This document shows positions 7,680 to 34,173 of a stretch of 64,000 nucleotides of DNA, piece by piece. The stretch comes from Candidatus Nealsonbacteria bacterium. Its GTDB lineage: Bacteria > Patescibacteriota > Minisyncoccia > Minisyncoccales > CAZKCU01. The first letter of the stretch is position 1, and each line of letters begins with the position of its first letter. Position numbers and translations under genes: made by a program. A model generated the notes under the pieces. That model was not told where the DNA came from, ran no database searches, and saw only the letters and a program-made list of their open reading frames with translations. Where the stretch lies: the NCBI GenBank assembly GCA_047456305.1, contig CP179888.1, positions 573,307 to 637,306 on the forward strand, read 5' to 3'.

Positions 7680-7716
7680 ATTGTGAAAAGTTCAAAGATG
7701 GACTTTTAACTAAATT

Positions 7717-8517: not shown

Positions 8518-8542
8518 AGAAAGGAGGTAAATAGTTCTTTTT
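8518..8542 (+). repeat. 25-bp perfect direct repeat, copy 1 (AGAAAGGAGGTAAATAGTTCTTTTT)
   Basis: Identical to 8804-8828. Confidence 0.9.
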
Positions 8543-8593
8543 CAATTTCAATTCTTTGAATCTTTTTAGAATCAACGAAAGGAGAAAGGAGAA

Positions 8594-8836
8594 GTGGGTA
8601 AGAAAAGAAAGCGCAAGATTTCAAATTGTGGTGGATTGAATTATGTATCCAAACAACCAGAAAAATGTCCCTTTTGTGGCGAAGATTTACCACCAAGCTT
8701 AGGAAAAATTTGGGTGAAGTGTCGTTTCTGTAAGGGACTAGTTCACCGCAAGATTAACAAAACTGGCCGCTGTAAAAAAATTGTTCCCCACCGAAATGAT
8801 CCAAGAAAGGAGGTAAATAGTTCTTTTTTTCACTAA
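8594..8836 (+). CDS. Small zinc-ribbon protein
   Basis: GTG start after AAAGGAGAAAGGAG. CPFC...CRFC cysteine pairs. Higher GC than neighbours. Confidence 0.45.
   Translation: MGKKRKRKISNCGGLNYVSKQPEKCPFCGEDLPPSLGKIWVKCRFCKGLVHRKINKTGRCKKIVPHRNDPRKEVNSSFFH
8804..8828 (+). repeat. 25-bp perfect direct repeat, copy 2
   Basis: Identical to 8518-8542. Lies in the 3' end of the zinc-ribbon ORF. Confidence 0.9.
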
Positions 8837-8977
8837 AGATAGTTACTACCAAGCTTACTACCAAGTCGCCTCACAGCCAGTCGAGGCGACTCTTTATTTT
8901 ACAAAATTTAAATTCTGTGATAGATTTGATAATAGTTCTTACTAAAAAAAGGTGGTGATCCAGAAAGGAGGCGAAGA

Positions 8978-9370
8978 ATGGCAAAAAAGAAAAAGATAAC
9001 AAAGCTAATGCGAAGTGGTCGGAAACGCTTCCCGGCTAAATTTCGGGACGATTTTCCTCAGGAAACCGTTCAAAAAATGGATGAGATAATACAGGGAATA
9101 TTAACCAATAACCGAGTTTTAGATGAAAAGGAGTTATGGTTAATAAAGTATATTGAGACATTTCTTGAATTTCGGGCAGCTATTTGGGATAAAAAAGTGA
9201 AAGTTATTAGAAAGATTAACAAGGCTGTAGCTGTAGCTGTAGAAAAAAAATATCTCAACGACGAAGAAGACGAAGAAATTGGTGGAATTAACCGAGCATT
9301 GCTTAAGAAAGAAGAGGAGGCGAATTTTGAAACTTTCAAAAAAAGACTTAAAGAAAGAAGTAAAAAATAA
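8978..9370 (+). CDS. Hypothetical charged protein
   Basis: ORF with strong SD GAAAGGAGG 7 nt upstream. No recognisable motifs. Confidence 0.45.
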   Translation: MAKKKKITKLMRSGRKRFPAKFRDDFPQETVQKMDEIIQGILTNNRVLDEKELWLIKYIETFLEFRAAIWDKKVKVIRKINKAVAVAVEKKYLNDEEDEEIGGINRALLKKEEEANFETFKKRLKERSKK

Positions 9371-9395
9371 CGGATCATCACCTTCTCACTTCTTT

Positions 9396-9471
9396 GGCCC
9401 CATCGTCTAGTGGCTTAGGACGCATGGTTCTCATCCATGTAACTCGGGTTCAAATCCCGATGGGGCCGCCA
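9396..9471 (+). tRNA. tRNA-Glu (anticodon CTC), CCA encoded
   Basis: Manual cloverleaf: acceptor GGCCCCA/TGGGGCC, anticodon stem CATGG/CCATG with loop TTCTCAT, T-arm TCGGG-TTCAAAT-CCCGA. Confidence 0.85.
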
Positions 9472-9479
9472 ATTTTTTT

Positions 9480-9507
9480 GAGAGACTTTTAATCAGTCTC
9501 TTTTTTG
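9480..9507 (+). terminator. Terminator after tRNA-Glu
   Basis: AGAGACT-tttaatc-AGTCTCT followed by TTTTTT. Confidence 0.6.
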
Positions 9508-9521
9508 GATATAATAAGTTA

Positions 9522-19896: not shown

Positions 19897-20508
19897 ATGT
19901 TAATCTTAAAGAAGATGAAAAAAGTAGACGCGATAATCAGTATTATAATTGGTTTTTTAATAGGAGTTTTTTTCTTTATTGGGTTGAAAAACATCGGGAA
20001 AAGCTTTCCTTATAGCTGGTTGCTTTTGATTATTTTCCCTCCTCTTGCCTTGCTTGGAATGTTTATTGCTTCCTACATTGGTAAAAAGCTTTTAATTATT
20101 TACCAGGCAGCAAAATGGGTTTTGGTAGGAGCTCTTAATACTTTTATTGATTTGGGACTACTAAATGGATTAATCTGGATTTCAGGTATTGCCACCGGGC
20201 TCTTCTTTTCGGTCTTTAAAGGAATCTCTTTTTTAGTTGCAACCCTAAATAGTTATTTTTGGAATAAACACTGGACTTTTCGCAAAAGAGAGAAAGTTTT
20301 TGCTCCCAGGGAATTTTCTAAGTTTTTGGTAGTAACTACCATTGGTCTTTTTATTAACGTGGGGATTGCTTCTTTTGTGGTGAATATTATTGGACCTCAA
20401 TATGGCATAGCAGAGAAAATGTGGGCAAATGTTGGAGCGTTGGCTGCCGTTTTAGTTGCCTGGGTCTGGAATTTTTTAGCATCCAAATTTATTGTATTTA
20501 AAAAGTGA
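19897..20508 (+). CDS. GtrA-family membrane protein
   Basis: Four TM helices with GALNTFIDLGLLNGL and a C-terminal WNFLASKFIVF pattern. Confidence 0.65.
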   Translation: MLILKKMKKVDAIISIIIGFLIGVFFFIGLKNIGKSFPYSWLLLIIFPPLALLGMFIASYIGKKLLIIYQAAKWVLVGALNTFIDLGLLNGLIWISGIATGLFFSVFKGISFLVATLNSYFWNKHWTFRKREKVFAPREFSKFLVVTTIGLFINVGIASFVVNIIGPQYGIAEKMWANVGALAAVLVAWVWNFLASKFIVFKK

Positions 20509-21629
20509 TGACAAATTTGGTCCTTTATCGCAAATACAGACCGCAAACTTTTGCTGAAATTATCGGTCAAGAACATATTGTTCAGACTTTAACCAATGCC
20601 ATCTCAACAGGGATGACTTCCCATGCCTATTTGTTTTCCGGGCCTAAAGGATCAGGAAAAACGACAATTGCCAGGCTTTTAGCAAAAGCAGTTAATTGCG
20701 AAAATCGAAAAGATGACCAATATGAGCCCTGTAATAAATGCTCGTCATGCCTTGAGATTATGGAAGGAAGGTCTATGGATTTAATTGAAATTGATGCTGC
20801 TTCCCATCGGGGAATTGATGAAATGAGAGAATTAAAAGATGGAATTCGATTCGTACCTACAAAGTCAAAATATAAGGTATTTATAATTGATGAAAGTCAT
20901 CAGCTTACGAAAGAAGCTGCCAATGCCCTCTTAAAAACTTTAGAAGAACCGCCTTCTCATGCTATTTTTGTTTTAGCCACCACTGAAATCCATAAAATGA
21001 TTCCAACCATTATCTCTCGCTGCCAAAGATTTGATTTCAGAAAACTAACTTTGCCAGAAATCATCAAAAGATTAGAAATTATTTCCCAGAAAGAAAAAGC
21101 TAAAATCGAAAAAGCGGCCTTAGAATTAATTGCCTTGAATTCTGGAGGTTCAATCAGAGATGGTGAGAGCTTATTAGACCAGATTCTAACTTTCGCCGGA
21201 ACTTCTGGGGAAGGGAAAGAAATAAAAGCTGAAGACATTAAAGATTTACTGGGATTGGTTGAAATAAATTTAGTGAGCAATTTTTGTGATTTTATTGCCG
21301 AAAAAAAAGTTTCAAAAGCTATTAATTTTTTAAACGATATAATCGATAAAGGATTAGACCTTCAAAACTTTACCAAAGCTCTGATTAATTATTTAAGACA
21401 AACTTTAATTTTAAAAATGACCGGCGGAGGAGAAGGAAATTCAATAATTACTGGATTAACCAAAGAGGAATTTCAAAAACTTGAAAAGCAAGCAACTTTC
21501 TTTAAAGAAGATGAGCTTCGAAATATTTTGGAGCTCTTCCTCGAAGCCGAAAATAAAATGAAATATTCCTCAATACCCCAATTACCCTTGGAATTAGCAA
21601 TAATTGAAGCAATCGGAGCAGGGGAGTAA
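20505..21629 (+). CDS. dnaX: DNA polymerase III gamma/tau subunit (short form)
   Basis: RPQTFAEIIGQEH, GPKGSGKTT, CNKCSSC, IIDESHQL, ISRCQRF. Confidence 0.85.
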   Translation: MMTNLVLYRKYRPQTFAEIIGQEHIVQTLTNAISTGMTSHAYLFSGPKGSGKTTIARLLAKAVNCENRKDDQYEPCNKCSSCLEIMEGRSMDLIEIDAASHRGIDEMRELKDGIRFVPTKSKYKVFIIDESHQLTKEAANALLKTLEEPPSHAIFVLATTEIHKMIPTIISRCQRFDFRKLTLPEIIKRLEIISQKEKAKIEKAALELIALNSGGSIRDGESLLDQILTFAGTSGEGKEIKAEDIKDLLGLVEINLVSNFCDFIAEKKVSKAINFLNDIIDKGLDLQNFTKALINYLRQTLILKMTGGGEGNSIITGLTKEEFQKLEKQATFFKEDELRNILELFLEAENKMKYSSIPQLPLELAIIEAIGAGE

Positions 21630-21633
21630 TTAT

Positions 21634-21704
21634 TCCGGGGTCGTCTAATGGTAGGACAGTTGGTTTTGGTCCAACCAATCTTGGTTCGAATCCAAGCCCC
21701 GGAG
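21634..21704 (+). tRNA. tRNA-Gln (anticodon TTG)
   Basis: Manual cloverleaf: acceptor TCCGGGG/CCCCGGA (U1-A72), anticodon stem GTTGG/CCAAC with loop TTTTGGT, T-arm CTTGG-TTCGAAT-CCAAG. Confidence 0.8.
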
Positions 21705-21877
21705 CCCACATTTTCATTGTTGTTTCTATTCTCTCTTTAATTGGCTCGGTCGCTCGCTACGGCTCGCTCCCTCGCCCTTATTTTATATTCAAAAATGGGT
21801 TTAAAAAAGTCAAAAAAAATTCTACTAAGCAAAACCTTTCGGTTTCGCTTTTTTATTTTCGCCAAAATTAGACAAAA

Positions 21878-21906
21878 TTGACAAAGAGAAAATAAAAATA
21901 TAAGAT
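21878..21906 (+). promoter_or_regulatory. Sigma70-type promoter of the helicase/nuclease operon
   Basis: TTGACA, 17 nt, TAAGAT. ATG of the HTH gene lies 10 nt downstream. Confidence 0.5.
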
Positions 21907-21916: not shown

Positions 21917-22096
21917 ATGGACAAACTTTTAACTATTAAAGAAATAGCAAAAATTCTCCGTGTCAGTGAACGGTCAGTAAACCGCTATATTGAATCTGGG
22001 AAGCTCAAAGCTTCCAAAATCGGCCAATGGCGAATATCCCAAAAAGATTTAGAAGGGTTTTTGCAAAAAACTAAAAATATTAAAAAGAGAAAGTGA
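21917..22096 (+). CDS. Excisionase/MerR-type helix-turn-helix DNA-binding protein (59 aa, below ORF-track cutoff)
   Basis: Own translation: MDKLLTIKEIAKILRVSERSVNRYIESGKLKASKIGQWRISQKDLEGFL... matches the excisionase-family HTH pattern. Confidence 0.6.
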   Translation: MDKLLTIKEIAKILRVSERSVNRYIESGKLKASKIGQWRISQKDLEGFLQKTKNIKKRK

Positions 22097-22100: not shown

Positions 22101-25100
22101 ATGGATCAAGTTTCATTATTAAATTTCATAAAGTATTGTTTTGGGTATATAAAATTGACTCGACAACGTTCCTTTATGCTCCAAAGTAAGCTCGCAATTA
22201 AATTGCCCGAGCATTTTTTTAATCTTGCAGAACTACTAGAAAGTGATATAGATGACAATACCGGCAAGCTGATAAATTTGGAAACTTTTTATTCTCTTGA
22301 CCCGAAAAGGATAACAAAAGAGACCCAAAAACAATATAACGAAGAGCAGTCTGTAGCAAAAAAGATAGAAGAAATTTATAACAAAGGTAGGAACGATCCT
22401 TATACTAAGCAGATTGTCTTTAGTTTCGGGTATTACGAAATTGAAATTCCTTTGGAAGAAGAAGAAATTGAATTAAGATCAGATTATTTGAGAGAGGAAG
22501 ATGAGAGTGAAAAGCCAGCGACGAAGATTGACCGTTATCCTTTATTTTCTCTTCCAATTAGTATCGAAAAAGTATTTGAAAAGGGAGCCGGTAAATATTT
22601 CATTAAGCCAATCGATACCGGGGTTCAAGTAAATATTGGTGTTCTCGCAGATATTTTAGGTGAAGATCTTTACTATAAACTGATAGAAGAATTTGGCAGA
22701 TACGAGGTGAAGGGCGATTTATCTTTGCCAATAACAAACTCGGTAATTTTTAACGAAATATGGGACAAGATCAGAGCTCAATTGAAATTAACGGATGTTA
22801 AATTTGGTGAAGACTCTTTTGTCTTTAATGAAATACGAGTAGGTATTAGTCCAAGGGCAAATTATTTTATAGCAGATGATTTACAAAAACTTTCTAAATA
22901 CGAAGAAGATGATTTTAAAAATACATCACTAATCAGTTGGATCGAGAATGAAGACCTTTCCTCAAAAGATGAGATACCAGAAGAAGGAGAACTATATTTT
23001 CCGTTCCTTTACGATGAATATCAATTAAGGGTTCTCTCAAATATCAATAATAATGCAAGCATTGTTCAGGGTCCTCCCGGAACAGGAAAATCCCAAACTA
23101 TCGCAAATCTTCTTTGTCATCTTGCCGCAAAAGGGAAAAAGATTCTCTTTGTGAGCCAGAAAGAGCAAGCTTTAAAAGTGGTAAAAGATATGTTGAAAAA
23201 ATTAGACACCCGGTATTTATTTGGATATATGCCAGATGTTGGCTCCATCCAATTAAATGAAGAAGATAGGTTAGATGGAATTGCTCCCCAGCTAGCTGCC
23301 TTAGAGTCTCACATAGATGAATTAGGTTATAAAATTTATCCGAGAAGAAAATATCCTCTTATTGTATATAAAGAGAAAAAAGGAGACACAATAACAACTC
23401 AAAGTATTAAAAATATTACCGAAAAGAAGACAGAATTAAAACAATTGTTTAGTCAATCAATCGAAGCACAAAGATTATTCTATAAGCTTTACCAAGAATT
23501 AGAGGATTTAAAGGAATATGATTTTGAGATTTCTAATTTGAGACGGTTTCAAAAAACATTTTCTGATGAGTTGCAGAAAAAAATTATAGAACTAAAGGAT
23601 GCTATAGAAAAGTTAGTTAAAGAAATTAAAAACTATGGAAGAAATAAAAAGAAGACCGGGTTTGATAAACTATTTTCTATTCTTGATCTAAAAAATAATC
23701 ACTACTCAGAGCTTATCCGAGAAATTGTTAACGATATCACTCAAGCTGGTTACGATGGGCATAATAAACTTTTGCGTAGTTTAAAAAATACTTTACAAAG
23801 GTGGCGCTTAAAGAATATTCGTTCTGCTTTACCCAGAGAATTACTTGATTATATCGATGAGCAAATTGGACAAGATATTTCAAGAACTCAAGCCATTAAG
23901 ACAATGGAAGAATTATTGAATTATTGTCGTTACCACGAACAACAAAAAGAGTTAAAAGAAATGGAAAAGGATTTAGAAGATTCGTTAAATAGTTGTGGGT
24001 CATCTAATAAAGAATTTCTTCGGATAGAAAAACTTATATCTAAGGCTAACTTCAATGAAGTTAAAGAAAAAATTCTCAGAACCTCGGAAATCCATAGACA
24101 ATTAGATGAGATTGAAACTAAAAACCCAAATGATATTAGTTTGTCTCTTGAGAAGACAGAAAAAACTCGACAGCAACGTATAGCAAAATATCTTCAAAAC
24201 ATTATTAATAAAAAAATCTTAGATAAATATAAAGAAGGAGCTTCGGTGAGAGCGATAATTAGAAAACTTGCCAAGGCCTTTGGTAAATCTAAAAAAGCAT
24301 ACAAGACTTTTGATCGGCTTAGAGATGACCCTAACAATTTTCTGGCTATTATGGATTTCATTCCAGTTTGGATAATGGAACTTGACGATGCGAGTCGGGT
24401 TATTCCTCTAGGGCCCGGAATTTTCGATTATGTTATTTTTGACGAATCTTCTCAATGCAATATCGCCTATGGAATTCCAGCAATGTACCGGGCTAAAAAA
24501 GCTCTTTTCGTAGGAGATAGTGAACAGATGCGAGATAATACGATTATCTTTAAATCAAATCGCTCTTTCGATGAATTGGCTAAAAAATATCAAATTTCTG
24601 AAGATCTTCAAATCAAGGCTACTGGAGAGGCAGTGCAGTCAATTTTAGACATAGCTCGATTAACAGGTTTTGAAGAAGTGCCGTTAAGGAATCATTATCG
24701 TTCACCGAGAGAATTAATTGGTTTTAGTAATAAATACTTCTATAAACCAAAAGGCAAAGAATTGATAATCCAAAATACTAACTATTTATCGTATAAAAAC
24801 ACTGATCAGATAATGGTCATTCATCCGATTGAAGTTGATTGGAATAAAGAAATTTCAGAAAGGATAAATGTCTCCGAGGCGGAAAAAATATTAAAGTTTT
24901 TCCGTGAACTAAAATCTGATAAACGCTACCAAGACAAATCTATTGGAATTCTTTCGTTTTTTAACGCTCAAGCAGCTTATCTCCGTGAGCTATTTGAAAA
25001 AGAAGGATATAAAGAAGAAGTTGATAATTACAAAATCGGGATTATTGAAGGAATTCAGGGCGATGAAAAAGATATTATTATCTATTCCTTTGTTATTCGG

Positions 25101-25676
25101 ACTCCAGATCAAAAAAATAAATATATTCCTCTTACAGGTGAAGGTGGAGACATTAGAGCCGGCATAAACAAAGGCAGAGTAAATGTTGCTTTCTCCCGAG
25201 CGCGATTACAAACTCACTGTTTTGTAAGTATGCCTATTGAAGAAATCCCGGACGGAATTTGGATTAAGAAATATCTTGAGTATGTAAAGGATAATTGCAA
25301 AATTGATTTTTTCTCAGTAGAGTTAAAACCTTTTGATTCTGAATTTGAAAAGAAGTTTTATAATTTTGTCTATTCAAACTTACCTAAAAAAGGGTATCGC
25401 ATCCAGAACCAAGTTAGGAGTTGCGGATTTAAAATTGACTTTGTTATCACTAATACTAAGACTGGAGAGAAGGTTGCCATTGAGTGTGATGGCCCAACTC
25501 ATTTTCAAAATGAAGCTGATGAAGAAATTGGAATCTATGCTGAAGATGATGAAGAAAGACGACAAATATTAGAAGCTGCCGGCTGGGAGTTTTGTAGAAT
25601 AAAATACTCTGATTGGATTGATGAAAAATTCGATCGTAAACTAATATTAAATGACATTATAAAGATACTCTCATAG
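22101..25676 (+). CDS. Upf1-like SF1B helicase fused to C-terminal DUF559/Vsr-fold endonuclease (DUF4011-type architecture)
   Basis: GPPGTGKSQT, FDESSQC, VGDSEQM, HYRSPRELI, IQGDEKDIIIYSFV, NVAFSRAR. C-terminus FKIDFVI...VAIECDGPTHF...AGWEFCRIKYSDW. Confidence 0.8.
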   Translation: MDQVSLLNFIKYCFGYIKLTRQRSFMLQSKLAIKLPEHFFNLAELLESDIDDNTGKLINLETFYSLDPKRITKETQKQYNEEQSVAKKIEEIYNKGRNDPYTKQIVFSFGYYEIEIPLEEEEIELRSDYLREEDESEKPATKIDRYPLFSLPISIEKVFEKGAGKYFIKPIDTGVQVNIGVLADILGEDLYYKLIEEFGRYEVKGDLSLPITNSVIFNEIWDKIRAQLKLTDVKFGEDSFVFNEIRVGISPRANYFIADDLQKLSKYEEDDFKNTSLISWIENEDLSSKDEIPEEGELYFPFLYDEYQLRVLSNINNNASIVQGPPGTGKSQTIANLLCHLAAKGKKILFVSQKEQALKVVKDMLKKLDTRYLFGYMPDVGSIQLNEEDRLDGIAPQLAALESHIDELGYKIYPRRKYPLIVYKEKKGDTITTQSIKNITEKKTELKQLFSQSIEAQRLFYKLYQELEDLKEYDFEISNLRRFQKTFSDELQKKIIELKDAIEKLVKEIKNYGRNKKKTGFDKLFSILDLKNNHYSELIREIVNDITQAGYDGHNKLLRSLKNTLQRWRLKNIRSALPRELLDYIDEQIGQDISRTQAIKTMEELLNYCRYHEQQKELKEMEKDLEDSLNSCGSSNKEFLRIEKLISKANFNEVKEKILRTSEIHRQLDEIETKNPNDISLSLEKTEKTRQQRIAKYLQNIINKKILDKYKEGASVRAIIRKLAKAFGKSKKAYKTFDRLRDDPNNFLAIMDFIPVWIMELDDASRVIPLGPGIFDYVIFDESSQCNIAYGIPAMYRAKKALFVGDSEQMRDNTIIFKSNRSFDELAKKYQISEDLQIKATGEAVQSILDIARLTGFEEVPLRNHYRSPRELIGFSNKYFYKPKGKELIIQNTNYLSYKNTDQIMVIHPIEVDWNKEISERINVSEAEKILKFFRELKSDKRYQDKSIGILSFFNAQAAYLRELFEKEGYKEEVDNYKIGIIEGIQGDEKDIIIYSFVIRTPDQKNKYIPLTGEGGDIRAGINKGRVNVAFSRARLQTHCFVSMPIEEIPDGIWIKKYLEYVKDNCKIDFFSVELKPFDSEFEKKFYNFVYSNLPKKGYRIQNQVRSCGFKIDFVITNTKTGEKVAIECDGPTHFQNEADEEIGIYAEDDEERRQILEAAGWEFCRIKYSDWIDEKFDRKLILNDIIKILS

Positions 25677-25700
25677 AAAATTAAATGAAAAATTAATTAT

Positions 25701-27188
25701 ATGAAAAAAATTACAGCTACTAATTTTTACGATTATACTAAATGCAAATATTGTGTATATTTAGAAAAAAACGGAGACCCAAAATTAAAAGATAAGATCT
25801 CCAATTTTGTGAAATTATTATGGTATAGAGGTATCCAGCATGAAGAGGCGGTTATTAAAGATTTTATTAAAAGCAAAAATAAATCTTTTGCAGAGGTTGC
25901 AAGAGATAAGCCAGCTGGTAAAGCAACTTTTATAGAAACAATTAACCTTATGAAAAGAGGAGTTGACTATATATATCAAGGAGTATTGATGGCTGATAAC
26001 TTTGTGGGCAGACCTGATTTACTTGAAAAAATAAAAGGTAATTCATCTTTTGGAGAGTACTGTTATATACCTGTTGATATTAAATCAGGAAGGGGTTATG
26101 AAGGAGAGGATTTTGATAATGGGAAAGTTAAAGAATCATATTGGCTCCAAATTAATTTCTACAGTCTTTTATTGGGCAAGATTCAAGGGTACCTTCCTAA
26201 ATTCGGTAAAATTATCAATATAGATTATCAAGAATTAGAATATAAGATCGATTTAGACAACAAAAATTTTATTAAGATTAAAGAAGATATATCATTGATG
26301 GCAAAAGGCCGTGAGTTATATCAGCCGACAATTAGTAGCAAGTGCGATTTATGTAGATGGAAAACTTATTGTAAAAAATGGGCAAACAAAAGAAAGGATT
26401 TATCTTTATTGTTTTATGTTGGTGAGATTAAATATGGATTACAGGATTGTGGAATTAATAAAATTGAGGAAATACTTAAATTGCCGTTAGAAGAATGGCT
26501 TAAAAAACTACCGGAAATAAAAAAAGAAGGACACTTTAAGGGTATTGCAGAAAAAACTTTTACCAACCTTTATAGAAGAGCGGAGGTTTACAAACAAGGC
26601 AAAGAAGTCTTTTATTCTCGGATAGAGTTTCCTGATTCAGATATAGAAATACATTTTGACATAGAAGATGACCCGACACAGGATATTACTTATTTATTTG
26701 GTTTCTGGATAAGAGAATTTTCAAAAAACAAAAGCTATTATAAATACTTCATGGCACAAGATATTAATGAAGAAGAAAAAACCGTAAAGGAGTTGTGGAG
26801 ATTTTTGCAAGAATGCTACGGAATACCAATATACCATTATTCTATGCATGAAATATCTACATTAAGAAGATTACAGCAAAAATATAAATTGACTCCAAGC
26901 CCCTTGGAACAACTTGAAGAGAAATCTATCGACTTATACAAAATAATACAAAAGTATTCTGATTGGCCTTTGACTAGTTATGGTTTGAAACCAATTTGCA
27001 AATTTATAGGTTTTCAGTGGTCTTCTGATGATGCTGGTGGAGCGAATTCAATTGAATGGTTCTCTAAATTTCTTTCTGGCGATAAGGAAATGAGAGAGAA
27101 GATATTAGAATATAATAAAGAAGACTGCGAAGCGACAGCCCACTTAAAAGATTATATACAAAAAAATGATAAATTTATCTCCAAGTAA
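25701..27188 (+). CDS. TM0106-type RecB/Cas4-like Fe-S nuclease fused to RNase-H-like (DEDD) exonuclease
   Basis: CKYC, GRPDLL, PVDIKSG, QINFYSLLL, CDLCRWKTYC; then IHFDIEDDP and YNKEDCEAT. Confidence 0.75.
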   Translation: MKKITATNFYDYTKCKYCVYLEKNGDPKLKDKISNFVKLLWYRGIQHEEAVIKDFIKSKNKSFAEVARDKPAGKATFIETINLMKRGVDYIYQGVLMADNFVGRPDLLEKIKGNSSFGEYCYIPVDIKSGRGYEGEDFDNGKVKESYWLQINFYSLLLGKIQGYLPKFGKIINIDYQELEYKIDLDNKNFIKIKEDISLMAKGRELYQPTISSKCDLCRWKTYCKKWANKRKDLSLLFYVGEIKYGLQDCGINKIEEILKLPLEEWLKKLPEIKKEGHFKGIAEKTFTNLYRRAEVYKQGKEVFYSRIEFPDSDIEIHFDIEDDPTQDITYLFGFWIREFSKNKSYYKYFMAQDINEEEKTVKELWRFLQECYGIPIYHYSMHEISTLRRLQQKYKLTPSPLEQLEEKSIDLYKIIQKYSDWPLTSYGLKPICKFIGFQWSSDDAGGANSIEWFSKFLSGDKEMREKILEYNKEDCEATAHLKDYIQKNDKFISK

Positions 27189-27903
27189 AATCAATATCTA
27201 CAAGCAGTGTCCGTTTAAATATAAATGCGAGATAGATACCGAATTAAGAAAAAAATATAAGAGAGAAACTCCTCCGCTTGTTTTCGGTAATTTGGTACAT
27301 ACTTGTTTAAATGACCTGTATAAGAGAACTCAAAAAGAAGATAGAAGTTTACAGAGACTCAGAGATTTGTTTGAACAAAAATTTAAAGCCAATCTGGCAA
27401 AACATATCAATATTTTTGGTTCGCAAGAGAATATAATAAGTTATGTAGAAAAGGCAAAGAAGATGTTTAAAAATTATACAGAAAGCGAATTTTTTGAACC
27501 GGAGCCAATGCTTACAGAAGAATTCCCTAAGTCTTTAATAAATGAAAATATTGAACTTAGAGGAAAGTTTGATAGGGTCGATCTTAATAAGAATAAATTG
27601 ACCTTAATAGATTATAAGACAGGAAAATTTAAAGAGGATGAAGCAGATAAATTTCAAGTAAGCCTTTACGAGCTTCTTTTATCAAGATACTTACCCGAAT
27701 ATACCGTAGAGGAAAAGATACTATATTATCTTGATGATAATAAAACAATCAGATTTCCATCTGAGAAAGATAGTCTTTCTGAAATAGAGAAAAAATTAAT
27801 GTCTATTGCTAATAAAATAGATAATGACAAAGAACTACTTCCGACACAAAATAATCTATGCAGATATTGCGATTATAAAGTTATATGTCCTGTTTTTAAA
27901 TAA
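27166..27903 (+). CDS. Cas4/AddB-type PD-(D/E)xK nuclease with Fe-S cysteines
   Basis: QCPFKYKC, GKFDRVD, LIDYKTGK, QVSLYELLL, CRYCDYKVIC. Overlaps the upstream gene by 23 nt. Confidence 0.75.
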   Translation: MINLSPSKINIYKQCPFKYKCEIDTELRKKYKRETPPLVFGNLVHTCLNDLYKRTQKEDRSLQRLRDLFEQKFKANLAKHINIFGSQENIISYVEKAKKMFKNYTESEFFEPEPMLTEEFPKSLINENIELRGKFDRVDLNKNKLTLIDYKTGKFKEDEADKFQVSLYELLLSRYLPEYTVEEKILYYLDDNKTIRFPSEKDSLSEIEKKLMSIANKIDNDKELLPTQNNLCRYCDYKVICPVFK

Positions 27904-27918
27904 AAGAATTACAATTTG

Positions 27919-29322
27919 ATGACCCAGCGAGAAGCATTAGATATATTGAAGCTTGGCCACAATGTTTTTTTGACTGGCCCTGCCGGAAGCGGTAAGACTT
28001 TTTTGTTAAACAAGTATATAGAGTATTTAAAAGACAAAAAAGTTAAAGTTGGAATTACTGCTTCTACAGGAATTGCGGCTACCCATATTAACGGAAGAAC
28101 AATTCATTCTTGGTCCGGTTTTGGTATTAAAGACAAGTTGATAGAAAAAGAAATGAGAAAATTGTTAAATAGCAGGCATCTTAATTTAAGAATTTCAGCA
28201 ACAAAAGTTCTTATTATAGACGAGATTTCAATGCTTCATGCTCATCAATTAGATTTGGTAAATAGAATCTGCAAAAAAATTAGAAATAACTATTTGCCAT
28301 TTGGGGGATTACAGGTTGTATTGTGTGGAGATTTTTTCCAACTGTCTCCTGTAGAAAGAAGCGGTAAAAAACCTCACTTTGTTAATGAATCCAAGGCTTG
28401 GCTTGAAATGGGTATTAAGGTTTGTTATTTGGATAAATGTCAGCATAGGCACAAAGATGAGAATTTCATTAAGCTTTTAAACGAAATAAGAAAAAATAAT
28501 GTCAGTGTTTCAAGTAAAAAATTATTACTTGAAAGGTTATATAAATCAGTAAATACCCCTATTAAACCTGTGAAGCTTCATACTCATAATGCTAATGTAG
28601 ATGCTATTAATAGTTTTGAGTTAAAAAAGATAAAAACTAAAGAAAGGGTTTATGAAATGACTTCTGATGGTCCTAAGAATTTAGTCGATTCTTTGAAAAA
28701 ATGGTGTTTAGCTCCAGAAGGACTAACTGTGAAAAAAGGAGCTGCTGTAATATTTGTTAAGAATAATTTTGATAGAGGATATATAAATGGAACCCTTGGA
28801 AAGATTGTAGGATTTAATAAAGAAGATGGTTATCCGGTAGTAAAAGTTGTTTCTGGTAAAAGAATTCCAGCATATCCTGAATCATGGAAAATAGAGGAAG
28901 ATGATGAAGTTAAAGCCCAGATTAGTCAAATTCCACTCCGTTTGGCTTGGGCTATTACAGTTCATAAAAGTCAAGGTATGACTTTAGATATAGCGGAAAT
29001 GGATTTAAGTAAGTCATTTGATTATGGTATGGGTTATGTAGCTCTTTCTAGGGTAAGGTCTTTTAATGGAATAAAGTTAATAGGGGTAAATCGTTTAGCC
29101 CTTCAGGTTAGCAAGGAAGTCATAGAATTAGACAAATACCTGCAAAAAATGTCAGAGAAAGTAGAAAAGAGTTTAGGAGATATAAGTGTCAAAGAAATTA
29201 GGAAAAGGCAAAAGAGCTTTGTAGAATTGAATACAGATGAAGATGAGAGCGAAGAAGACGAAGCAATACCAACAGTAGATATTGCTGAAGATGAAATACC
29301 AATAGTAGATATTCCTTTTTAA
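27919..29322 (+). CDS. Pif1/RecD-type SF1B helicase with acidic C-terminal tail
   Basis: GPAGSGKTF, IIDEISML, LCGDFFQLSPV, ITVHKSQGMT, YVALSRVRS. Confidence 0.8.
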   Translation: MTQREALDILKLGHNVFLTGPAGSGKTFLLNKYIEYLKDKKVKVGITASTGIAATHINGRTIHSWSGFGIKDKLIEKEMRKLLNSRHLNLRISATKVLIIDEISMLHAHQLDLVNRICKKIRNNYLPFGGLQVVLCGDFFQLSPVERSGKKPHFVNESKAWLEMGIKVCYLDKCQHRHKDENFIKLLNEIRKNNVSVSSKKLLLERLYKSVNTPIKPVKLHTHNANVDAINSFELKKIKTKERVYEMTSDGPKNLVDSLKKWCLAPEGLTVKKGAAVIFVKNNFDRGYINGTLGKIVGFNKEDGYPVVKVVSGKRIPAYPESWKIEEDDEVKAQISQIPLRLAWAITVHKSQGMTLDIAEMDLSKSFDYGMGYVALSRVRSFNGIKLIGVNRLALQVSKEVIELDKYLQKMSEKVEKSLGDISVKEIRKRQKSFVELNTDEDESEEDEAIPTVDIAEDEIPIVDIPF

Positions 29323-29457
29323 TTTTTATTTGACTGGTGATTATCGGCAGTGCTTTTTTGCGATGGTAGGGTAGAGGAGAAGAAAAAGAAATAAATTTAT
29401 GAAGGCAAAAATATAATAATCATTTTGGCGTTGATAGTTATTATTTTATAATTACTT

Positions 29458-30225
29458 ATGAAAATATATTCTGATTTTGAACTTAGAACAGAAATAAAAA
29501 AACTCAAAAAAGAAAAAAAATACACAGAGGCTAAGAAGTTACTATTATCAAGAATAGATGAGAAATTTTTTAAAAAATCCGGTGCTTATAAGGATTATTG
29601 TTCGCAAACATTTACTACTTACTTTATCGAAGAACTTATAAAATTGTTAATTCAACTAGGCGAAAAAGAAAAGGCTCTCCATGTCTTTAAGAAAGGGCTA
29701 AAATTACCACATTTAAAAAGAGAAAATGAAATTGCCTTTTCTCTATCAATACAAAGTATCTATCCTCAAATAGCAAAACAGTATATTCCAAGATATAAAA
29801 TAAAAACAATCGAAAGAAGGGTAGTTTTCAAGAAAGGCAAACAAAAATTTTTAGAAAAAAATAGAAAGGAATTATTTGTTGAAGAGATAGCTTTGGAATA
29901 TTACCGTTATAATGGTAATTGGCGCGGTGTATGGCTCACTCCCACAACAGAAGTTTTATATTTTAAACGCTTAAGACAAACAATTGGTTTAAGTAATTAC
30001 AAAAAATTAACAAGCAATGCAATGGATAGCATGGGGCATATTTGCAATTTGTGCTATGGAGCACCAGATTTAATTTTGTATAAAGGGTTTATCAAGAAGA
30101 TTGGGAAGTCTGTTGAAGTAAAAGGCTTAAAAGACAAACTCTCTACAGCACAGTTAGTATGGATTGAACAATTTAATAAACTACATTTAGATTTTGAGGT
30201 GTTACAAGTTAAAGAAAAAAAATAA
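29458..30225 (+). CDS. FAN1-like nuclease (helical/TPR-like N-domain + VRR-NUC)
   Basis: VEEIALEYYRYNGNWRGVW and GAPDLILYK...SVEVKGLKDKLSTAQLVWIEQF (PD...ExK VRR-NUC pattern). Confidence 0.6.
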   Translation: MKIYSDFELRTEIKKLKKEKKYTEAKKLLLSRIDEKFFKKSGAYKDYCSQTFTTYFIEELIKLLIQLGEKEKALHVFKKGLKLPHLKRENEIAFSLSIQSIYPQIAKQYIPRYKIKTIERRVVFKKGKQKFLEKNRKELFVEEIALEYYRYNGNWRGVWLTPTTEVLYFKRLRQTIGLSNYKKLTSNAMDSMGHICNLCYGAPDLILYKGFIKKIGKSVEVKGLKDKLSTAQLVWIEQFNKLHLDFEVLQVKEKK

Positions 30226-30436
30226 TATTTTTGTGAGAGGTTAACTCTAACTCGAAAAAATTAAAGAAATTAGAATTTGGAGAGTGAATAAAATTTTTAA
30301 ATAAAAATGTGAATTTTTTAGTAGAAAATCTTTTAAAAGTTAGGGCAACTGACCATCGAAAAATTCAAGAGGAAATTAGAAGAATTATTAAAAGAAGCCA
30401 AACAAAAAGTCGAGGAATTAATTGAGAAATAAAATT

Positions 30437-30730
30437 ATGGATTATATAAAAACGTATATATTTAAAGATAAAGATGGTAAATTTTGGCCAAAAGTAAAAT
30501 TTAATACTGAGAAAGGAGATTGGCAACCTAAGGCGGAACAAATTAAAGATATTGTTAGGGTATATTCTTATTGTCTAGAAAAATCTCGTTATTCTGAAGC
30601 TTTTGGTGGTGCAGAAAAATTTGCAGAACAAATCAACCTCGCCATTTTATACAATAAAGATGGTTCCCCTAGGTCGTATGAATACGGAGATGAAATATAT
30701 GATATAGAAGAGGAAGTAAAAGAACATTGA
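30437..30730 (+). CDS. Hypothetical protein
   Basis: ORF track; ATG 30437 preferred. No recognisable motifs. Confidence 0.4.
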   Translation: MDYIKTYIFKDKDGKFWPKVKFNTEKGDWQPKAEQIKDIVRVYSYCLEKSRYSEAFGGAEKFAEQINLAILYNKDGSPRSYEYGDEIYDIEEEVKEH

Positions 30731-30751
30731 GAGAAAAATAAAAGATCAATC

Positions 30752-30770
30752 AAAATTTAGCCCGAAATTA
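30752..30770 (+). repeat. Junction repeat family 1 (AAAATTTAGGCYGAARTTGAG), short copy
   Basis: AAAATTTAGCCCGAAATTA immediately before ATG 30773. Confidence 0.6.
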
Positions 30771-30772
30771 AT

Positions 30773-31477
30773 ATGAAACAATGGGATAAAATATTTAAAA
30801 AATATGGTAAAGTTTTTACAAAAATCGAAAGGGATTTGCCAAAAATTGTAAAAATATTTAAAAAACATAATGTTAAAAAAGTCCTTGATTTAGGTTCAGG
30901 CACGGGACGACATGTAATTTATTTAGCTAAAAATGGATTTGAAGTATATGGAATTGATATTTCCGAGGAAGGAATAAAAATTACCAAAAATTGGTTAAGA
31001 GAGAACGAATTAAAGGCGGGCCTTAAAGTTGGCTCCATCTACAAAAAGTTGCAATACAAAGATAACTTTTTTGATGCGGTTATATCTACAAGCACGATTC
31101 ATCATGCCAGAATTAAAACCATCAGAAAAGCAATCAAAGAAATAGAAAGGATATTAAAGCCAGGCGGATTAATTTTTATAACTGTCCGTAAAAGAAAGCT
31201 TAAGAAGTTCTGGCCAAAATCTACAATAATTGAGAAATACGGAAAACAAAAATCAAGCTATAAAGTAATTGGACCAAGGACTTATATACCGATAGAAGGA
31301 GGCGAAAAAGGATTAATACATTATCTTTTTAATAAAGAATTGATAAAAAAAGAATTTAAGAACTTTAAAATTAATAATATTTGGATTGATTCTAAAAGAA
31401 GGCATTATTGTTTCTTAGGGGAATTAAAAAACTTACCAAAATTTAGGCCGAAGTTGAGGGAAATCAATAAAATATGA
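30773..31477 (+). CDS. Class I SAM-dependent methyltransferase
   Basis: [11 protein letters not shown] motif I, GIDIS acidic loop, [10 protein letters not shown]. Confidence 0.75.
31438..31465 (+). repeat. Junction repeat family 1, copy inside 3' end of methyltransferase ORF
   Basis: AAAATTTAGGCCGAAGTTGAGGGAAATC, 9 nt before ATG 31474. Confidence 0.7.
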
Positions 31478-32016
31478 AATATCCTGATTTGAAGATAAAA
31501 TTTCAAAATAAAACATTAACTTTTCAATTTTTGGGGCAATTTGAGATCGAGCGAGACGAAAAAGGAACCCCAATTACTTATGAGAGGAAAAATCAAGAAG
31601 AAACGAGTTATTTATTAAGTGTTCGGACAGAACTAACAAAAAGTGGTAAACCTGAGGTAATTACAATTCTTCCAAATCATTTACGTACAAAATTAAAACG
31701 AAAATATTACGATACAAAAAATCTTGGTGATATCTGGCGATTACCCGGAATTTATGCATTTATATTGACAAAAGATAATAACGTAAAATACAAATATATA
31801 GGTCGAGCAAGTATCAGAATTGCAAACCGTTTACGACAATACCTTGCACCGAGCTCTAAAAGAATGACGACTTTTTATGTAAATCGATTGTTGTTTAAAA
31901 CACTTAAAGAGGGAGACACAGTGCTAATCTATTTTTATCCCGAGCCTGACACAGAAAAGGAATTGCAAATTCTTCTTCGTCCAGATTGGAACCGTGAGAT
32001 TCCTAGAAATAATTAA
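31474..32016 (+). CDS. GIY-YIG-like nuclease-domain protein (tentative)
   Basis: [22 protein letters not shown]...ANRLRQY resembles GIY-(x13)-YIG plus a conserved Arg. ATGA overlap with the upstream gene. Confidence 0.4.
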
Positions 32017-32042
32017 AATTTAGGCCAAAGTTGAGAGAAATT
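32015..32042 (+). repeat. Junction repeat family 1, intergenic copy
   Basis: AAAATTTAGGCCAAAGTTGAGAGAAATT, 10 nt before ATG 32053. Confidence 0.7.
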
Positions 32043-32052
32043 CAAAAAGAAT

Positions 32053-32628
32053 ATGAATGATATTGAAATCGAGATTCAAGTTAATATTGAAGATAATAAG
32101 CCGCTAATAGATTTTTTAGAAAAGAGCGGTCAGTTTATGTCAGAGAACCATCAGATAGACGAGTATTTTTCTCCGGTTCACCGAAATTTTATTGGAGTTC
32201 GTCCAGTTAAAGAATGGTTAAGGTTACGAAACTCAGACGGGAAATTCTCTATAAATTATAAAAACTGGTATTTTGATGAAAAAGGAAAAAGCCACCATTG
32301 TGATGAATACGAAACTAAAATAGAAGATTTAACCCAAATTAAAAAGATATTAGATGTCCTTAATTTTAAATCTATTATTAAGGTTGATAAACTAAGAAAA
32401 ACCTGGATATACAAAGATTATGAAATTGATGTAGATTCAGTAAAAGGGCTGAGAGATTTTGTGGAGATTGAATACATCGGAAAAGAAGAAAAAATAGACC
32501 CAAAAAAGATTACAGAAGAAATGATGAGCTTTCTTAAAAGTCTTGGGTGCGGAAAAATAAAAAGGAATTATGTAGGTTATCCGTTTCAATTACTATTTCC
32601 AGATGAAGTAAAATATGAAGAGCAATAA
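32053..32628 (+). CDS. CYTH-domain protein (CyaB-like class IV adenylyl cyclase / triphosphatase fold)
   Basis: N-terminal IEIEIQ (ExExK-like), WLRLR, DEYETKI, LRKTW, DFVEIEY in CyaB-like order. Confidence 0.7.
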   Translation: MNDIEIEIQVNIEDNKPLIDFLEKSGQFMSENHQIDEYFSPVHRNFIGVRPVKEWLRLRNSDGKFSINYKNWYFDEKGKSHHCDEYETKIEDLTQIKKILDVLNFKSIIKVDKLRKTWIYKDYEIDVDSVKGLRDFVEIEYIGKEEKIDPKKITEEMMSFLKSLGCGKIKRNYVGYPFQLLFPDEVKYEEQ

Positions 32629-32629
32629 A

Positions 32630-32658
32630 TCGCCAAGATGGCGGTTTTTTGATAGAAT
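32630..32658 (+). promoter_or_regulatory. Junction element family 2: hairpin + T-run + TGnTAGAAT (-10) cassette
   Basis: TCGCCAAGATGGCGGTTTTTTGATAGAAT; ATG 32666 lies 7 nt after the -10. Confidence 0.6.
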
Positions 32659-32665
32659 AAATAAA

Positions 32666-32956
32666 ATGAAATATAGTAAAAAACCAATTGATAATAATTT
32701 AGAGAAATATTACAAAAAATGGATTTCAGCAATTGCTAATGACGAAACCGGCCGAACAATCAAACGGCATATCATTAGACATGCCAAAGAAATTTATTCA
32801 AAAGAATCAAAAGTATGGTCGGCGAGCATGAGAAATTTGATAGAAGTTTTTGATGAGGTCTATAAATCGACTCCGTCAATAAAATTAAAAATAAAAAGAC
32901 TCCAACATAAGTACAAACTGAATCCAAAAAGATATACCCCTCCACCGTCCAAGTAA
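32666..32956 (+). CDS. Hypothetical basic protein
   Basis: ORF-track frame trimmed to the ATG that follows the junction element (MKYSKKPID...). Confidence 0.4.
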   Translation: MKYSKKPIDNNLEKYYKKWISAIANDETGRTIKRHIIRHAKEIYSKESKVWSASMRNLIEVFDEVYKSTPSIKLKIKRLQHKYKLNPKRYTPPPSK

Positions 32957-32973
32957 GGTTTAAATTTTCGTAA

Positions 32974-33002
32974 TCGCCAAGATAGCGGTTTTTTGGTAGA
33001 AT
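32974..33002 (+). promoter_or_regulatory. Junction element family 2
   Basis: TCGCCAAGATAGCGGTTTTTTGGTAGAAT; ATG 33010 lies 7 nt after the -10. Confidence 0.6.
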
Positions 33003-33009
33003 AGAAAAT

Positions 33010-33552
33010 ATGAAGAAAGAGGAATATTTAGATATAGTTGACGAAAATGACAAGGTAATTGATAGAGATACTAGAAAAAATATATATAGAAAAAGAATAG
33101 ATTCCCAAGTTAGAGTTGTAAATGTTTTTATTTTAAACTCGGAAGGAAAATTACTCCTACCTAAAAGGTCGATGAATAGACAGATTTTTCCTGGATGCTA
33201 TGATTTTTCTTGTGGAGAACATGTTTTATCTGGAGAAAAGTATTATGAAACAGCCTTGAGAGGCGTGAGAGAAGAATTGGGCCTTGAAGGAGTAGAATTA
33301 ATTGAGTTAGGGAAACTTACTCCTCGGGATGGTGTTAGTTGTTTTATGAAAATCTATAAAGTGATCTATGATGCAGAAATAAATAATTATGACACGGATG
33401 GAATTGATAGATTGTTTTGGTATAGCTTGGATAAAGTGAGAAAAATGATCATGGAGGACAAGAAAAAATTTAAGGATGATTTTTCAATTGTACTAGAAAA
33501 ATTTGCTAATCAACTTGAAAACATAAGTAGCAAAAAACAGAATTTAGGCTGA
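33010..33552 (+). CDS. Nudix hydrolase (IDI/YfcD-like)
   Basis: Nudix box GEHVLSGEKYYETALRGVREELGL, with RG in place of the canonical RE. Confidence 0.8.
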   Translation: MKKEEYLDIVDENDKVIDRDTRKNIYRKRIDSQVRVVNVFILNSEGKLLLPKRSMNRQIFPGCYDFSCGEHVLSGEKYYETALRGVREELGLEGVELIELGKLTPRDGVSCFMKIYKVIYDAEINNYDTDGIDRLFWYSLDKVRKMIMEDKKKFKDDFSIVLEKFANQLENISSKKQNLG

Positions 33553-33559
33553 AATTGAG
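33541..33559 (+). repeat. Junction repeat family 1, copy at 3' end of Nudix ORF
   Basis: AATTTAGGCTGAAATTGAG. Confidence 0.6.
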
Positions 33560-33582
33560 CCCTTCGCCAAGCTCAGGGTAAA
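33560..33582. repeat. 23-nt GC-rich motif CCCTTCGCCAAGCTCAGGGTAAA
   Basis: One mismatch to 54426-54448 inside murC. Confidence 0.7.
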
Positions 33583-33609
33583 GGAAAATTTAATAACTAT
33601 ATAAAGATT

Positions 33610-34173
33610 ATGGCATTAAAAGTAGGTATAATTGGACCCGCTAATATTCCGAAAATAAGTAAAATTGTTGGGAAACCAGCAGGTTTTTTTCTTGAGAGGG
33701 GTGATAAGATTGGAGAAATTTTAGTCGAAACTGGTTGTGAATTGTGGGTAAATAGTGATAAAGGTATGCTGGCTAAAATTGCCAGAGCTTATAAGAAAAA
33801 TAATGGTAAAAAATTAGTTATTCTATACCCTGGTAAAGGCGAGCCATGGCCTAAAGATCATGCCGAATTATACAGAAAATACGGAGATGAAATTAGAAAA
33901 GAACCTAACTGGTTTTGGTCAAATTATAATGTAGTTTCATTACCAGATGTTTGTATTTGTGTAGGATTAAGCGCTGGTGGTTTGAGTGAGTTGGCATATA
34001 TTAAATGGAATTATTCATTGAAATGTGGGAATTTAAAAAAATTAATTGCAATAAAAGAATTGTTAAGAGGTGGTAAGTTGCCACCAGAAATTGAATTTGA
34101 TATCCAAAAAATATTAATATACATCAATAAAACTGAGGAATTAAAGGAACTTTTAGAAAAACTTTCTAAATAA
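33610..34173 (+). CDS. LOG/SLOG-like Rossmann-fold protein (TIGR00725-like, tentative)
   Basis: VGIIGPAN N-terminal strand, GCELWVNSDKGMLAKIARAY, CVGLSAGGLSELAY resembling the LOG GGxGTxxE region. Confidence 0.45.
   Translation: MALKVGIIGPANIPKISKIVGKPAGFFLERGDKIGEILVETGCELWVNSDKGMLAKIARAYKKNNGKKLVILYPGKGEPWPKDHAELYRKYGDEIRKEPNWFWSNYNVVSLPDVCICVGLSAGGLSELAYIKWNYSLKCGNLKKLIAIKELLRGGKLPPEIEFDIQKILIYINKTEELKELLEKLSK

Follow-up and report, generated by a model that had tools for sequence, protein, structure and literature searches.

What do two overlapping genes for Cas4-type nucleases do when they lie outside any CRISPR context? The question is raised by a 64,000-nt stretch of a Candidatus Nealsonbacteria chromosome (contig CP179888.1 of assembly GCA_047456305.1, positions 573,307 to 637,306), here called the window, whose own numbering we use. 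An earlier note, made from the sequence alone, had described two adjacent nucleases there, compared them to AddA/AddB, and proposed the Pif1-type helicase encoded directly downstream as their partner. We call the product of open reading frame (ORF) 25701-27188 P1 and that of ORF 27166-27903 P2. P1-P2 is a conserved, tightly joined gene pair in Candidate Phyla Radiation (CPR) bacteria, and an ATPase gene, encoding a superfamily 1 (SF1) helicase or RarA, usually lies beside it. Cooperation of the two genes, with each other and with a helicase, is supported by these comparative sequence data. The reading that we favour, tentatively, is that P1 and P2 form a split, modular, helicase-coupled DNA-end-processing cassette of CPR bacteria. 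By analogy, this cassette may resemble AddAB/AdnAB or Dna2 plus Pif1 in function, with separate small proteins and interchangeable partners.

The two nucleases

ORF calls agree with the Pfam and TIGR03491 matches that two Cas4/AddB-type nuclease genes adjoin here, as had been noted. They overlap by 23 nt on the + strand, and P2 is read in the +1 frame. The two proteins and the domains of P1 map as follows.

25701-27188, + strand: P1, TM0106-family dual nuclease, 495 aa (TIGR03491, 292 bits)
25701-26390, + strand: P1 residues 1-230, Cas4-like PD-(D/E)XK nuclease domain with four conserved Cys
26391-26636, + strand: P1 residues 231-312, helical linker
26637-27188, + strand: P1 residues 313-495, predicted DEDDy RNase-H-like 3'-5' exonuclease domain
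27166-27903, + strand: P2, stand-alone PF12705 (COG2887-type) RecB-family nuclease, predicted iron-sulfur (Fe-S) protein, 245 aa

P1 matched TIGR03491 ("TM0106 family RecB-like putative nuclease") at 292.3 bits, against a cutoff of 97.45, and did so end to end (residues 5-486 on profile positions 2-462 of 462), which bears out the TM0106 architecture assigned to it in the earlier note. Its C-terminal half matched PF13482 RNase_H_2 (2.5e-30, residues 318-486), and its N-terminal half gave a weak PDDEXK_1/Cas4 match (PDDEXK_1 at residues 68-225). The score of P1 with the CRISPR Cas4 equivalog TIGR00372 was 29.3 bits, below the cutoff of 65. In an alignment with 21 relatives, C15, D106, K128, Q150, Y154, C215, C218 and C224 of the nuclease domain are invariant and D126 nearly so. 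Invariant in the exonuclease domain are D320, E322, D323, D324, D411, Y471 and D475, among which D320, E322, D411, Y471 and D475 mark the exonuclease as DEDDy type. Each motif quoted in the earlier note occurs in its protein, and most of them do not vary among relatives, but the second cysteine of the P1 motif CKYC (C18) is not conserved; the likely cluster ligands of P1 are therefore C15, C215, C218 and C224.

An AlphaFold2 model of P1 (pLDDT 90.4, pTM 0.84) was searched with Foldseek. The N-terminal domain matched type I-C Cas4 best (8d3l, 7e-6), and also Pcal_0546 Cas4 and ACE1, and the C-terminal domain gave weak matches to RNase-H folds and TREX1-like structures. No PDB chain matched the whole of P1, by fold or by sequence profile. 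MrfB, a repair exonuclease of DEDDh type that acts together with a helicase, was considered as an analogue of the C-terminal domain; it was not among the Foldseek matches.

P2 matched PF12705 PDDEXK_1 over its full length (2e-36, 126.6 bits, cutoff 22) and PF01930 Cas_Cas4 at 2e-8. It also matched the phage exonuclease family phrog_69 (7e-30), and its TIGR00372 score of 53.6 bits fell below the same cutoff of 65. Alignment with 22 relatives showed invariant catalytic residues (D136, R137, D139, D149, Y150, K151, Q164 and Y168) and invariant cysteines (C15, C21, C232, C235 and C241). The best Foldseek matches of its AlphaFold2 model (pLDDT 88.1, pTM 0.83) were ACE1 (9iab, 1e-9, TM 0.72) and the mycobacterial AdnA nuclease domain (7sjr, TM 0.74), followed by AddB (3u4q) and by Dna2 (5eaw), the last at TM 0.63-0.68.

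Profile-profile comparison of the P1 nuclease domain with P2 aligned 97 columns at 22% identity (E-value 1e-5). Recent paralogy was thereby ruled out; being only remotely related, P1 and P2 are two specialised enzymes from different RecB/Cas4 branches. In PADLOC 2.0 they matched generic Cas4, DruK and Aga-Cas4-like nuclease profiles only (1e-5 to 1e-16), and neither matched a system-specific component model. P1 and P2 are thus two different, apparently active Fe-S RecB/Cas4-type nucleases, one of which adds a DEDDy exonuclease. The cluster is predicted in both proteins from a four-cysteine motif that is invariant in each.

Linkage of the two genes across loci

Loci for the comparison came from three sources: 77 genome loci through the P2 alignment, 80 metagenome loci through the P1 alignment, and 17 through exact homologue look-ups. 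Their six-frame ORFs were scanned with the window proteins. A locus (L number) was taken as informative when it held a P2 orthologue at least 45% identical to P2 and enough upstream sequence to judge; 20 loci qualified. P2 is accompanied by a second nuclease gene at 14 of the 20. At 11 of the 20 that gene is TM0106 and lies on the same strand directly upstream; at three a different, short RecB-like nuclease (224-254 aa) stands in the place of P1.

TM0106 directly upstream of P2: window, L083, L088, L090/91, L092, L094/95, L096, L001, L007, L171/172, L178
Short RecB-like nuclease in place of P1: L168 (3346-4029), L169 (5312-5986), L170 (2083-2847)

The short proteins belong to a third RecB-like nuclease family, with an N-terminal CPRC motif, and members of it also lie 6-7 kb from distant P2-like genes in other CPR genomes (L027, L030, L032, L034, L036). 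One further locus, L173, is a decayed copy with TM0106 and Pif1 remnants.

Gene order is constant, with the second nuclease first and P2 after it. The two genes abut, their junctions ranging from a 53-nt overlap to a 13-nt gap, a range compatible with coupled translation; at L170 a Pif1 gene lies between them. A run of seven A residues at the P1/P2 junction of the window was considered as a site of programmed frameshifting or transcriptional slippage yielding a fusion, and was rejected when neither the run nor the frame relation proved conserved among orthologues.

A distance tree of the close TM0106 clade has pair-bearing members on either side of its deepest split, so the pair is probably ancestral and was lost several times. 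Such a loss is exemplified by L089, which has no P2 although its identity to the pair-bearing L088 is 87%. Pairwise identities of P1 and of P2 correlate (r = 0.95, eight pairs). Pairing also extends far within TM0106, for in L171 P2 is paired with a TM0106 protein only 36% identical to P1 of the window.

Candidate motor proteins beside the pair

Three kinds of ATPase recur beside the pair: Pif1, an Upf1-like SF1 helicase, and RarA/MgsA. Two of these flank it in the window.

22101-25676, + strand: fusion of an Upf1-like SF1 helicase (AAA_11/AAA_12) with an MTES_1575/DUF559-type restriction endonuclease (REase), 1191 aa (Pfam)
27916-29322, + strand: Pif1-type SF1B helicase, starting 12 nt after P2 (PF05970, 4.5e-40; Pif1_2B)

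The Pif1-type helicase is where the earlier note had placed it; it also matched the Dda-like helicase family phrog_325 (3e-68). Orthologues 57-61% identical recur by the pair: in L088 and L090/91 they immediately precede it, and in L170 one separates the two nucleases. These recurrences favour Pif1 as a partner, as had been proposed, but not as an obligatory one. The closest relative, L083, is 90% identical in DNA to window positions 24459-27958; the two then diverge, ~55 nt after the stop codon of P2 and barely inside the window's Pif1 gene. Because L083 has no Pif1, the linkage is optional, and because similarity ends there, the flank downstream of P2 is a variable region.

The helicase-REase had been overlooked in the earlier note; it ends 24 nt before P1. 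An Upf1-like SF1 helicase, with or without an REase domain, lies directly upstream of the pair in four lineages (window, L083, L168 and L171/172), and the same helicase-REase gene type precedes TM0106 also in L087, L123, L132/135 and L154. Pfam assigned AAA_12 (2.6e-21), MTES_1575 (5e-18) and AAA_11 (4e-12) to the window protein, and no DUF4011. It matched PADLOC PDC-S37 at 5e-71, a partial match (profile positions 623-1328 of 1550), and the NCBIfam models ProA (1e-72, 245 bits against a cutoff of 1500) and Hhe (3e-43, 148 bits against a cutoff of 2000). Since TM0106-SF1 helicase fusions exist (see below), this protein is a candidate motor at least as good as Pif1. It may serve defence, be cargo of an island, or act as motor for the nucleases; in L087/L005 the same helicase adjoins a serine-recombinase element.

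RarA/MgsA overlaps or abuts TM0106 in L001, L007, L094/95 and L096, with uracil-DNA glycosylase (UDG) and RmuC genes close by. This RarA-TM0106-P2 subclade lies in otherwise stable housekeeping synteny.

Several of these proteins share a C-terminal sequence. The window Pif1 has an acidic tail of ~55 aa (29160-29322) that ends in ...EDEIPIVDIPF. The P2 orthologues of L168 (4038-4823) and L169 (5980-6777) end in ...TNIPF and ...TDIPF, the distant P2-like proteins of L018 (3044-3913) and L019 (524-1357) in ...SSDIPF, and one TM0106 protein, P0189, in ...AEDDDIPF. Among 13,349 six-frame ORFs in all loci, six end in IPF, and five of the six encode proteins of these families. We take the D/N-I-P-F tails to be like the C-terminal tip of the bacterial single-stranded DNA-binding protein (SSB), which docks onto many repair proteins; by that likeness they may be a docking motif that tethers parts of the module or its partners.

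Relation to known systems

P1 shares with the TM0106 family (TIGR03491/COG2251) both the Cas4-like (DUF83) domain and the PF13482 exonuclease domain; COG2251 is RNase-H-like family F.13 of Majorek et al. 2014 (PMC3985635).

AddAB and AdnAB resemble the proposed cassette in combining an SF1 motor with two distinct RecB-family nuclease modules, one or both of which have a four-cysteine cluster motif, and the modelled fold of P2 is like the AdnA and AddB nuclease domains. The motor differs: in AddAB and AdnAB a UvrD-like SF1A (or helicase-like) domain is fused to each nuclease, whereas P1 and P2 are separate small proteins with neither an active nor an inactivated helicase domain, and the motors at hand are SF1B Pif1 or Upf1-like, not UvrD-like. 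The NCBIfam AddA/AddB models scored P1 and P2 at 22-31 bits, far below cutoffs of 486-904. AddAB, moreover, has no DEDDy exonuclease, and P1 has one. The nuclease-bearing subunits of AddAB and AdnAB form a stable heterodimer; the heteromer that the earlier note suggested for P1 and P2, whose genes are paired and co-inherited, is a putative one.

Eukaryotic Dna2 has the nuclease type and the helicase classes (AAA_11/AAA_12, Pif1) in common with the genes of the window, and Dna2 cooperates with Pif1. In Dna2, however, an Fe-S RecB-like nuclease and an Upf1-like SF1B helicase make up one polypeptide, and in the window these parts are split across genes; the Pfam Dna2 match (PF08696) was 17.2 bits, below the threshold of 22.4. 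One TM0106 protein fused to AAA_11/12 (P0285) has a Dna2-like layout. As the defining motor-nuclease fusions are absent and the curated scores are not reached, the cassette is not a member of AddAB, AdnAB or Dna2.

P2 belongs to the solo-Cas4/pfam12705 Cas4-like proteins of CPR bacteria and DPANN archaea, which are enriched in small CPR genomes without CRISPR (Hudaiberdiev et al. 2017, PMC5704561). Cas4-like nucleases have been linked to UvrD or YprA helicases (PMC5704561), and ACE1, the best structural match of P2, is a defence accessory nuclease (PMC12094033). The Argonaute, UvrD and YprA partners of solo-Cas4 and ACE1 are not found here; instead the partners are TM0106 or the short nuclease, with Pif1 or Upf1-like helicases. 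CRISPR Cas4 (TIGR00372) shares with P1 and P2 the fold, the four-cysteine cluster motif and the RecB motifs.

The window helicase-REase has the AAA_11/12 helicase and MTES_1575 nuclease region in common with Hhe, PDC-S37 and ProA, but it lacks their DUF4011 N-terminal part and is ~350-700 aa shorter. Descriptions of those systems give one gene each, whereas TM0106 comes next here and at several further loci.

A possible mechanism

Having no motor of its own, the cassette would work with an adjacent SF1 helicase. In the window either the Upf1-like helicase-REase upstream or Pif1 downstream could serve, or the two together. Unwinding by the helicase would start at a DNA end or at a broken fork. 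An Fe-S RecB/Cas4-type nuclease, either P2 or the N-terminal domain of P1 or both, would take in the 5'-terminated strand, and the DEDDy exonuclease of P1 would trim the 3'-terminated one. The outcome could be resection for recombination, or destruction of linear DNA.

The characterised relatives of Fe-S RecB/Cas4-type nucleases take single-stranded DNA as substrate and mostly degrade it 5' to 3', and the AddB, AdnA and Dna2 nucleases act inside helicase-nuclease machines. From this known chemistry of the families we infer a motor-less nuclease set acting on helicase-opened ends. A physical P1-P2 complex, the Fe-S clusters, the strand polarities and the biological role are putative as well. 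Cas4 and ACE1 act on single-stranded DNA (PMC5704561; PMC12094033), and the DEDD enzymes of the clade to which P1 belongs are predicted 3'-5' exonucleases (PMC3985635).

TM0106 genes at large

TM0106 proteins are numerous: a full HMMER scan of 1.84 billion representatives (50%-identity clusters) gave at least 1285 clusters at E ≤ 1e-30, and 4656 when the limit was E ≤ 1e-10. The fusions among them bear on their partners. P0285 joins TM0106 to an AAA_11/AAA_12 helicase resembling MkoA, in P0257 and P0270 TM0106 is joined to Wadjet JetD (JetD2, 1.8e-120), and P0251 adds an AAA+ domain. COG2251 has been remarked to occur often with tandem AAA domains (Majorek et al. 2014, PMC3985635), and the AAA-bearing fusions agree with that remark.

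Genuine PDC-S37/Hhe giants (E = 0) lie immediately upstream of TM0106 in unrelated bacteria, at three places.

L123, 327-6777: PDC-S37/Hhe giant followed directly by TM0106
L132 (with L135), 4162-11437: PDC-S37/Hhe giant followed directly by TM0106
L154, 2855-9430: PDC-S37/Hhe giant followed directly by TM0106

TM0106 may thus be an unrecognised accessory of PDC-S37/Hhe-, MkoA- and JetD-type systems, whose listings give a single gene or no TM0106. Upstream of TM0106 in L086 and L087 stand restriction-modification or helicase-REase genes that adjoin a large serine recombinase, so part of this adjacency may reflect an insertion hot spot. Most TM0106 genes have ordinary neighbours, such as those for a P-type ATPase, a response regulator or YqeY, and the ~65 loci outside CPR showed no constant partner gene, only lineage-specific synteny. 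P2 orthologues without a second nuclease follow type I HsdR (with a 4-nt overlap), HsdS, or type III Res plus an AAA_21 ATPase at three loci, and P2 orthologues also follow dnd-associated genes.

Both genes are almost absent from viral sequences: 2.9 million IMG/VR viral contigs held three distant P1 and two distant P2 matches. A phage origin was ruled out on this basis, and both genes are of cellular origin.

Weighing the explanations

Several observations weigh against a helicase-coupled cassette. Six of the 20 informative loci have P2 without a second nuclease (L008, taken with L175-177, and L009, L010, L011, L012, L174). Nearly all TM0106 members are stand-alone proteins of 450-520 aa, and the ~65 loci outside CPR, 35-43% identical, have no P2-like gene nearby. 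The earlier note had itself raised the possibility that orthologues are normally unlinked in related genomes; that is not so for P2, paired at 14 of 20 loci, but it is so for TM0106 outside CPR (0 of ~65). The type of helicase beside the pair varies and none is constant; in L083 positions 3497-5153, where the window has Pif1, hold an unrelated gene for a 341-aa protein with no Pfam match and, judged by eye, a DUF559-like C-terminus. Many flanks, finally, look like defence islands, with restriction-modification genes, PDC-S37/Hhe genes or a serine-recombinase element.

The islands lead to another explanation, possible though in our view doubtful, that P1 and P2 are defence accessories: the helicase-REase, or elsewhere restriction-modification or Wadjet, would cut or sense foreign DNA, and P1 and P2, with or without Pif1, would degrade the linearised invader. 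The PDC-S37 match of the upstream gene, the giants abutting TM0106 in unrelated bacteria, the fusions to JetD (P0257) and to a MkoA-like helicase (P0285), and the restriction and dnd-associated genes that precede P2 orthologues all fit it, as do the variable flanks, with near-identical L083 breaking off so soon after P2, and the defence role of ACE1, a structural relative. Yet P1 and P2 match no defence-system model beyond the generic Cas4 and DruK nuclease profiles, the RarA-TM0106-P2 subclade keeps its housekeeping synteny, and most TM0106 genes have ordinary neighbours. The neighbours in L086 and L087, moreover, look like cargo of a serine-recombinase element, which would make adjacency there an effect of an insertion hot spot. 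Repair and destruction of foreign DNA need not exclude each other. We favour a mainly housekeeping repair role, bearing also on foreign DNA as with RecBCD, because of the RarA/UDG/RmuC synteny, because inheritance is vertical, and because the neighbours of most TM0106 genes are ordinary; the recurrent links to Hhe/PDC-S37, restriction-modification and JetD speak for defence.

It is unlikely that the two are independent repair nucleases, merely co-transcribed for operon economy in a 640-kb genome, with separate substrates and neither a complex nor a dedicated helicase. Each gene is indeed widespread alone, the neighbouring ATPase varies, and the window holds other, unlinked repair genes, including those for RmuC, RecR and XseA. 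Against this stand the fixed order and tight junctions across deep divergence, the replacement of P1 by another RecB-like nuclease and not by an arbitrary gene, and the retention of Pif1 through rearrangement. Least probable, and by our estimate very improbable, is a role in CRISPR or mobile elements, with the Cas4-like proteins serving spacer acquisition at a distant CRISPR locus or acting as recombination exonucleases of a prophage or integrative element. The weak Cas4 profile matches, the phrog_69 match of P2 and an HTH_17 gene next to a tRNA gene (see below) would suit such a role. The 64-kb window has no CRISPR array, however, so a CRISPR context was rejected, and no cas gene (cas1 and cas2 included) was found among the ~45 window ORFs scanned; the earlier note had likewise placed the pair outside any CRISPR context. 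The TIGR00372 scores (29 and 54 bits) miss the cutoff, cas1 and cas2 were not seen in any related locus examined, and viral contigs yielded only the few distant matches given above. With regard to 21.7-34 kb as a possible island, homologues of the serine recombinase and flanking genes of a related one (L087) are absent from the window, and the ORFs scanned included no integrase. The helicase-coupled cassette thus stays our preferred, if tentative, explanation.

Surroundings in the window

The window is otherwise ordinary CPR chromosome, with genes for PBP2, Mur ligases, aminoacyl-tRNA synthetases, Fmt, DnaB, RecR, RmuC, DnaX and XseA. The features around the nuclease and helicase genes are these.

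20505-21629: dnaX, housekeeping gene 5' of tRNA-Gln
21633-21708, + strand: tRNA-Gln(UUG), at the boundary between housekeeping dnaX and the nuclease/helicase cluster (ARAGORN; Rfam RF00005, 59.9 bits)
21878-21906, + strand: best sigma-70-like promoter match upstream of the cluster, weak (TTGACA-17-TAAGAT, 10 of 12 matches)
21917-22096, + strand: HTH_17 (excisionase/MerR-like) DNA-binding protein, 59 aa (PF12728, 4.3e-17)
29458-30225, + strand: protein with C-terminal VRR-NUC domain, 255 aa (PF08774, 6e-11), after a 135-nt gap from Pif1

An HTH_17 gene adjoins the serine recombinase of the related island in L005 too. The two top promoter-like matches lie 5' of the HTH gene and, at 29425-29452, just 5' of the VRR-NUC gene. 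Their positions would fit a single HTH-helicase-P1-P2-Pif1 transcript, although sigma-70-like sites are no more frequent in the region than in shuffled sequence. The VRR-NUC gene is probably transcribed from its own promoter and is a doubtful member of the module; homologues of its product were absent from all related loci examined.

The same-strand region 29458-34173 encodes this VRR-NUC protein, whose N-terminal domain is unknown, an S-adenosylmethionine-dependent methyltransferase (PADLOC mad2, 2e-25), a CYTH-domain protein, a NUDIX hydrolase and several ORFs without a family. Its GC content is slightly lower (0.30-0.32), and it may be a variable or defence-type island. Two repeats were noted elsewhere. 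A 126-nt unit occurs four times in tandem (85% matches) at 2702-3193, within a 548-aa ORF (2192-3838) that has a DUF11 domain and looks like a repeat-containing surface protein. A 22-nt unit is duplicated in perfect tandem at 45362-45405, between genes.

Implications

At the level of single-gene annotation there is nothing new here, as NCBI already names both exact proteins (P1, XOB41725.1, "TM0106 family RecB-like putative nuclease"; P2, XOB41726.1, "RecB family exonuclease"). The protein families were known, as was the enrichment of solo Cas4-like genes in CPR (PMC5704561). New is the genomic context of the pair. In the literature we found no description of P2 pairing with TM0106 or the short nuclease, of interchangeable SF1 motors or helicase neighbours of such a pair, or of the repeated recruitment of TM0106 by defence proteins. 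Nor did we find an experimental paper on the TM0106 family, or anything relevant on ProA.

TM0106/COG2251 is a large family of unknown function with no solved structure, and the solo Cas4-like nucleases of CPR and DPANN have awaited explanation since 2017. For DNA-end processing in ultra-small bacteria, a nuclease pair whose SF1 helicases are interchangeable offers a concrete and testable hypothesis, and it suggests why TM0106 recurs beside or fused to Hhe/PDC-S37, JetD and a MkoA-like helicase. The repair reading predicts that genomes with the cassette lack AddAB and RecBCD; the CPR DNA-repair literature yielded no statement on their content of either.

A broader proposal is speculative, and in its full form we would sooner doubt than accept it. 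CPR bacteria, and perhaps DPANN archaea, would use a split modular DNA-end-resection machine in place of RecBCD/AddAB, made of a constant P2, an exchangeable second nuclease and exchangeable SF1 motors, its parts tethered by sporadic SSB-tip-like DIPF tails, and co-opted by Hhe/PDC-S37, JetD and restriction-modification against cut foreign DNA. If true, such a split machine would extend the theme of AddAB, AdnAB, RecBCD and Dna2 to a minimal, mix-and-match form.

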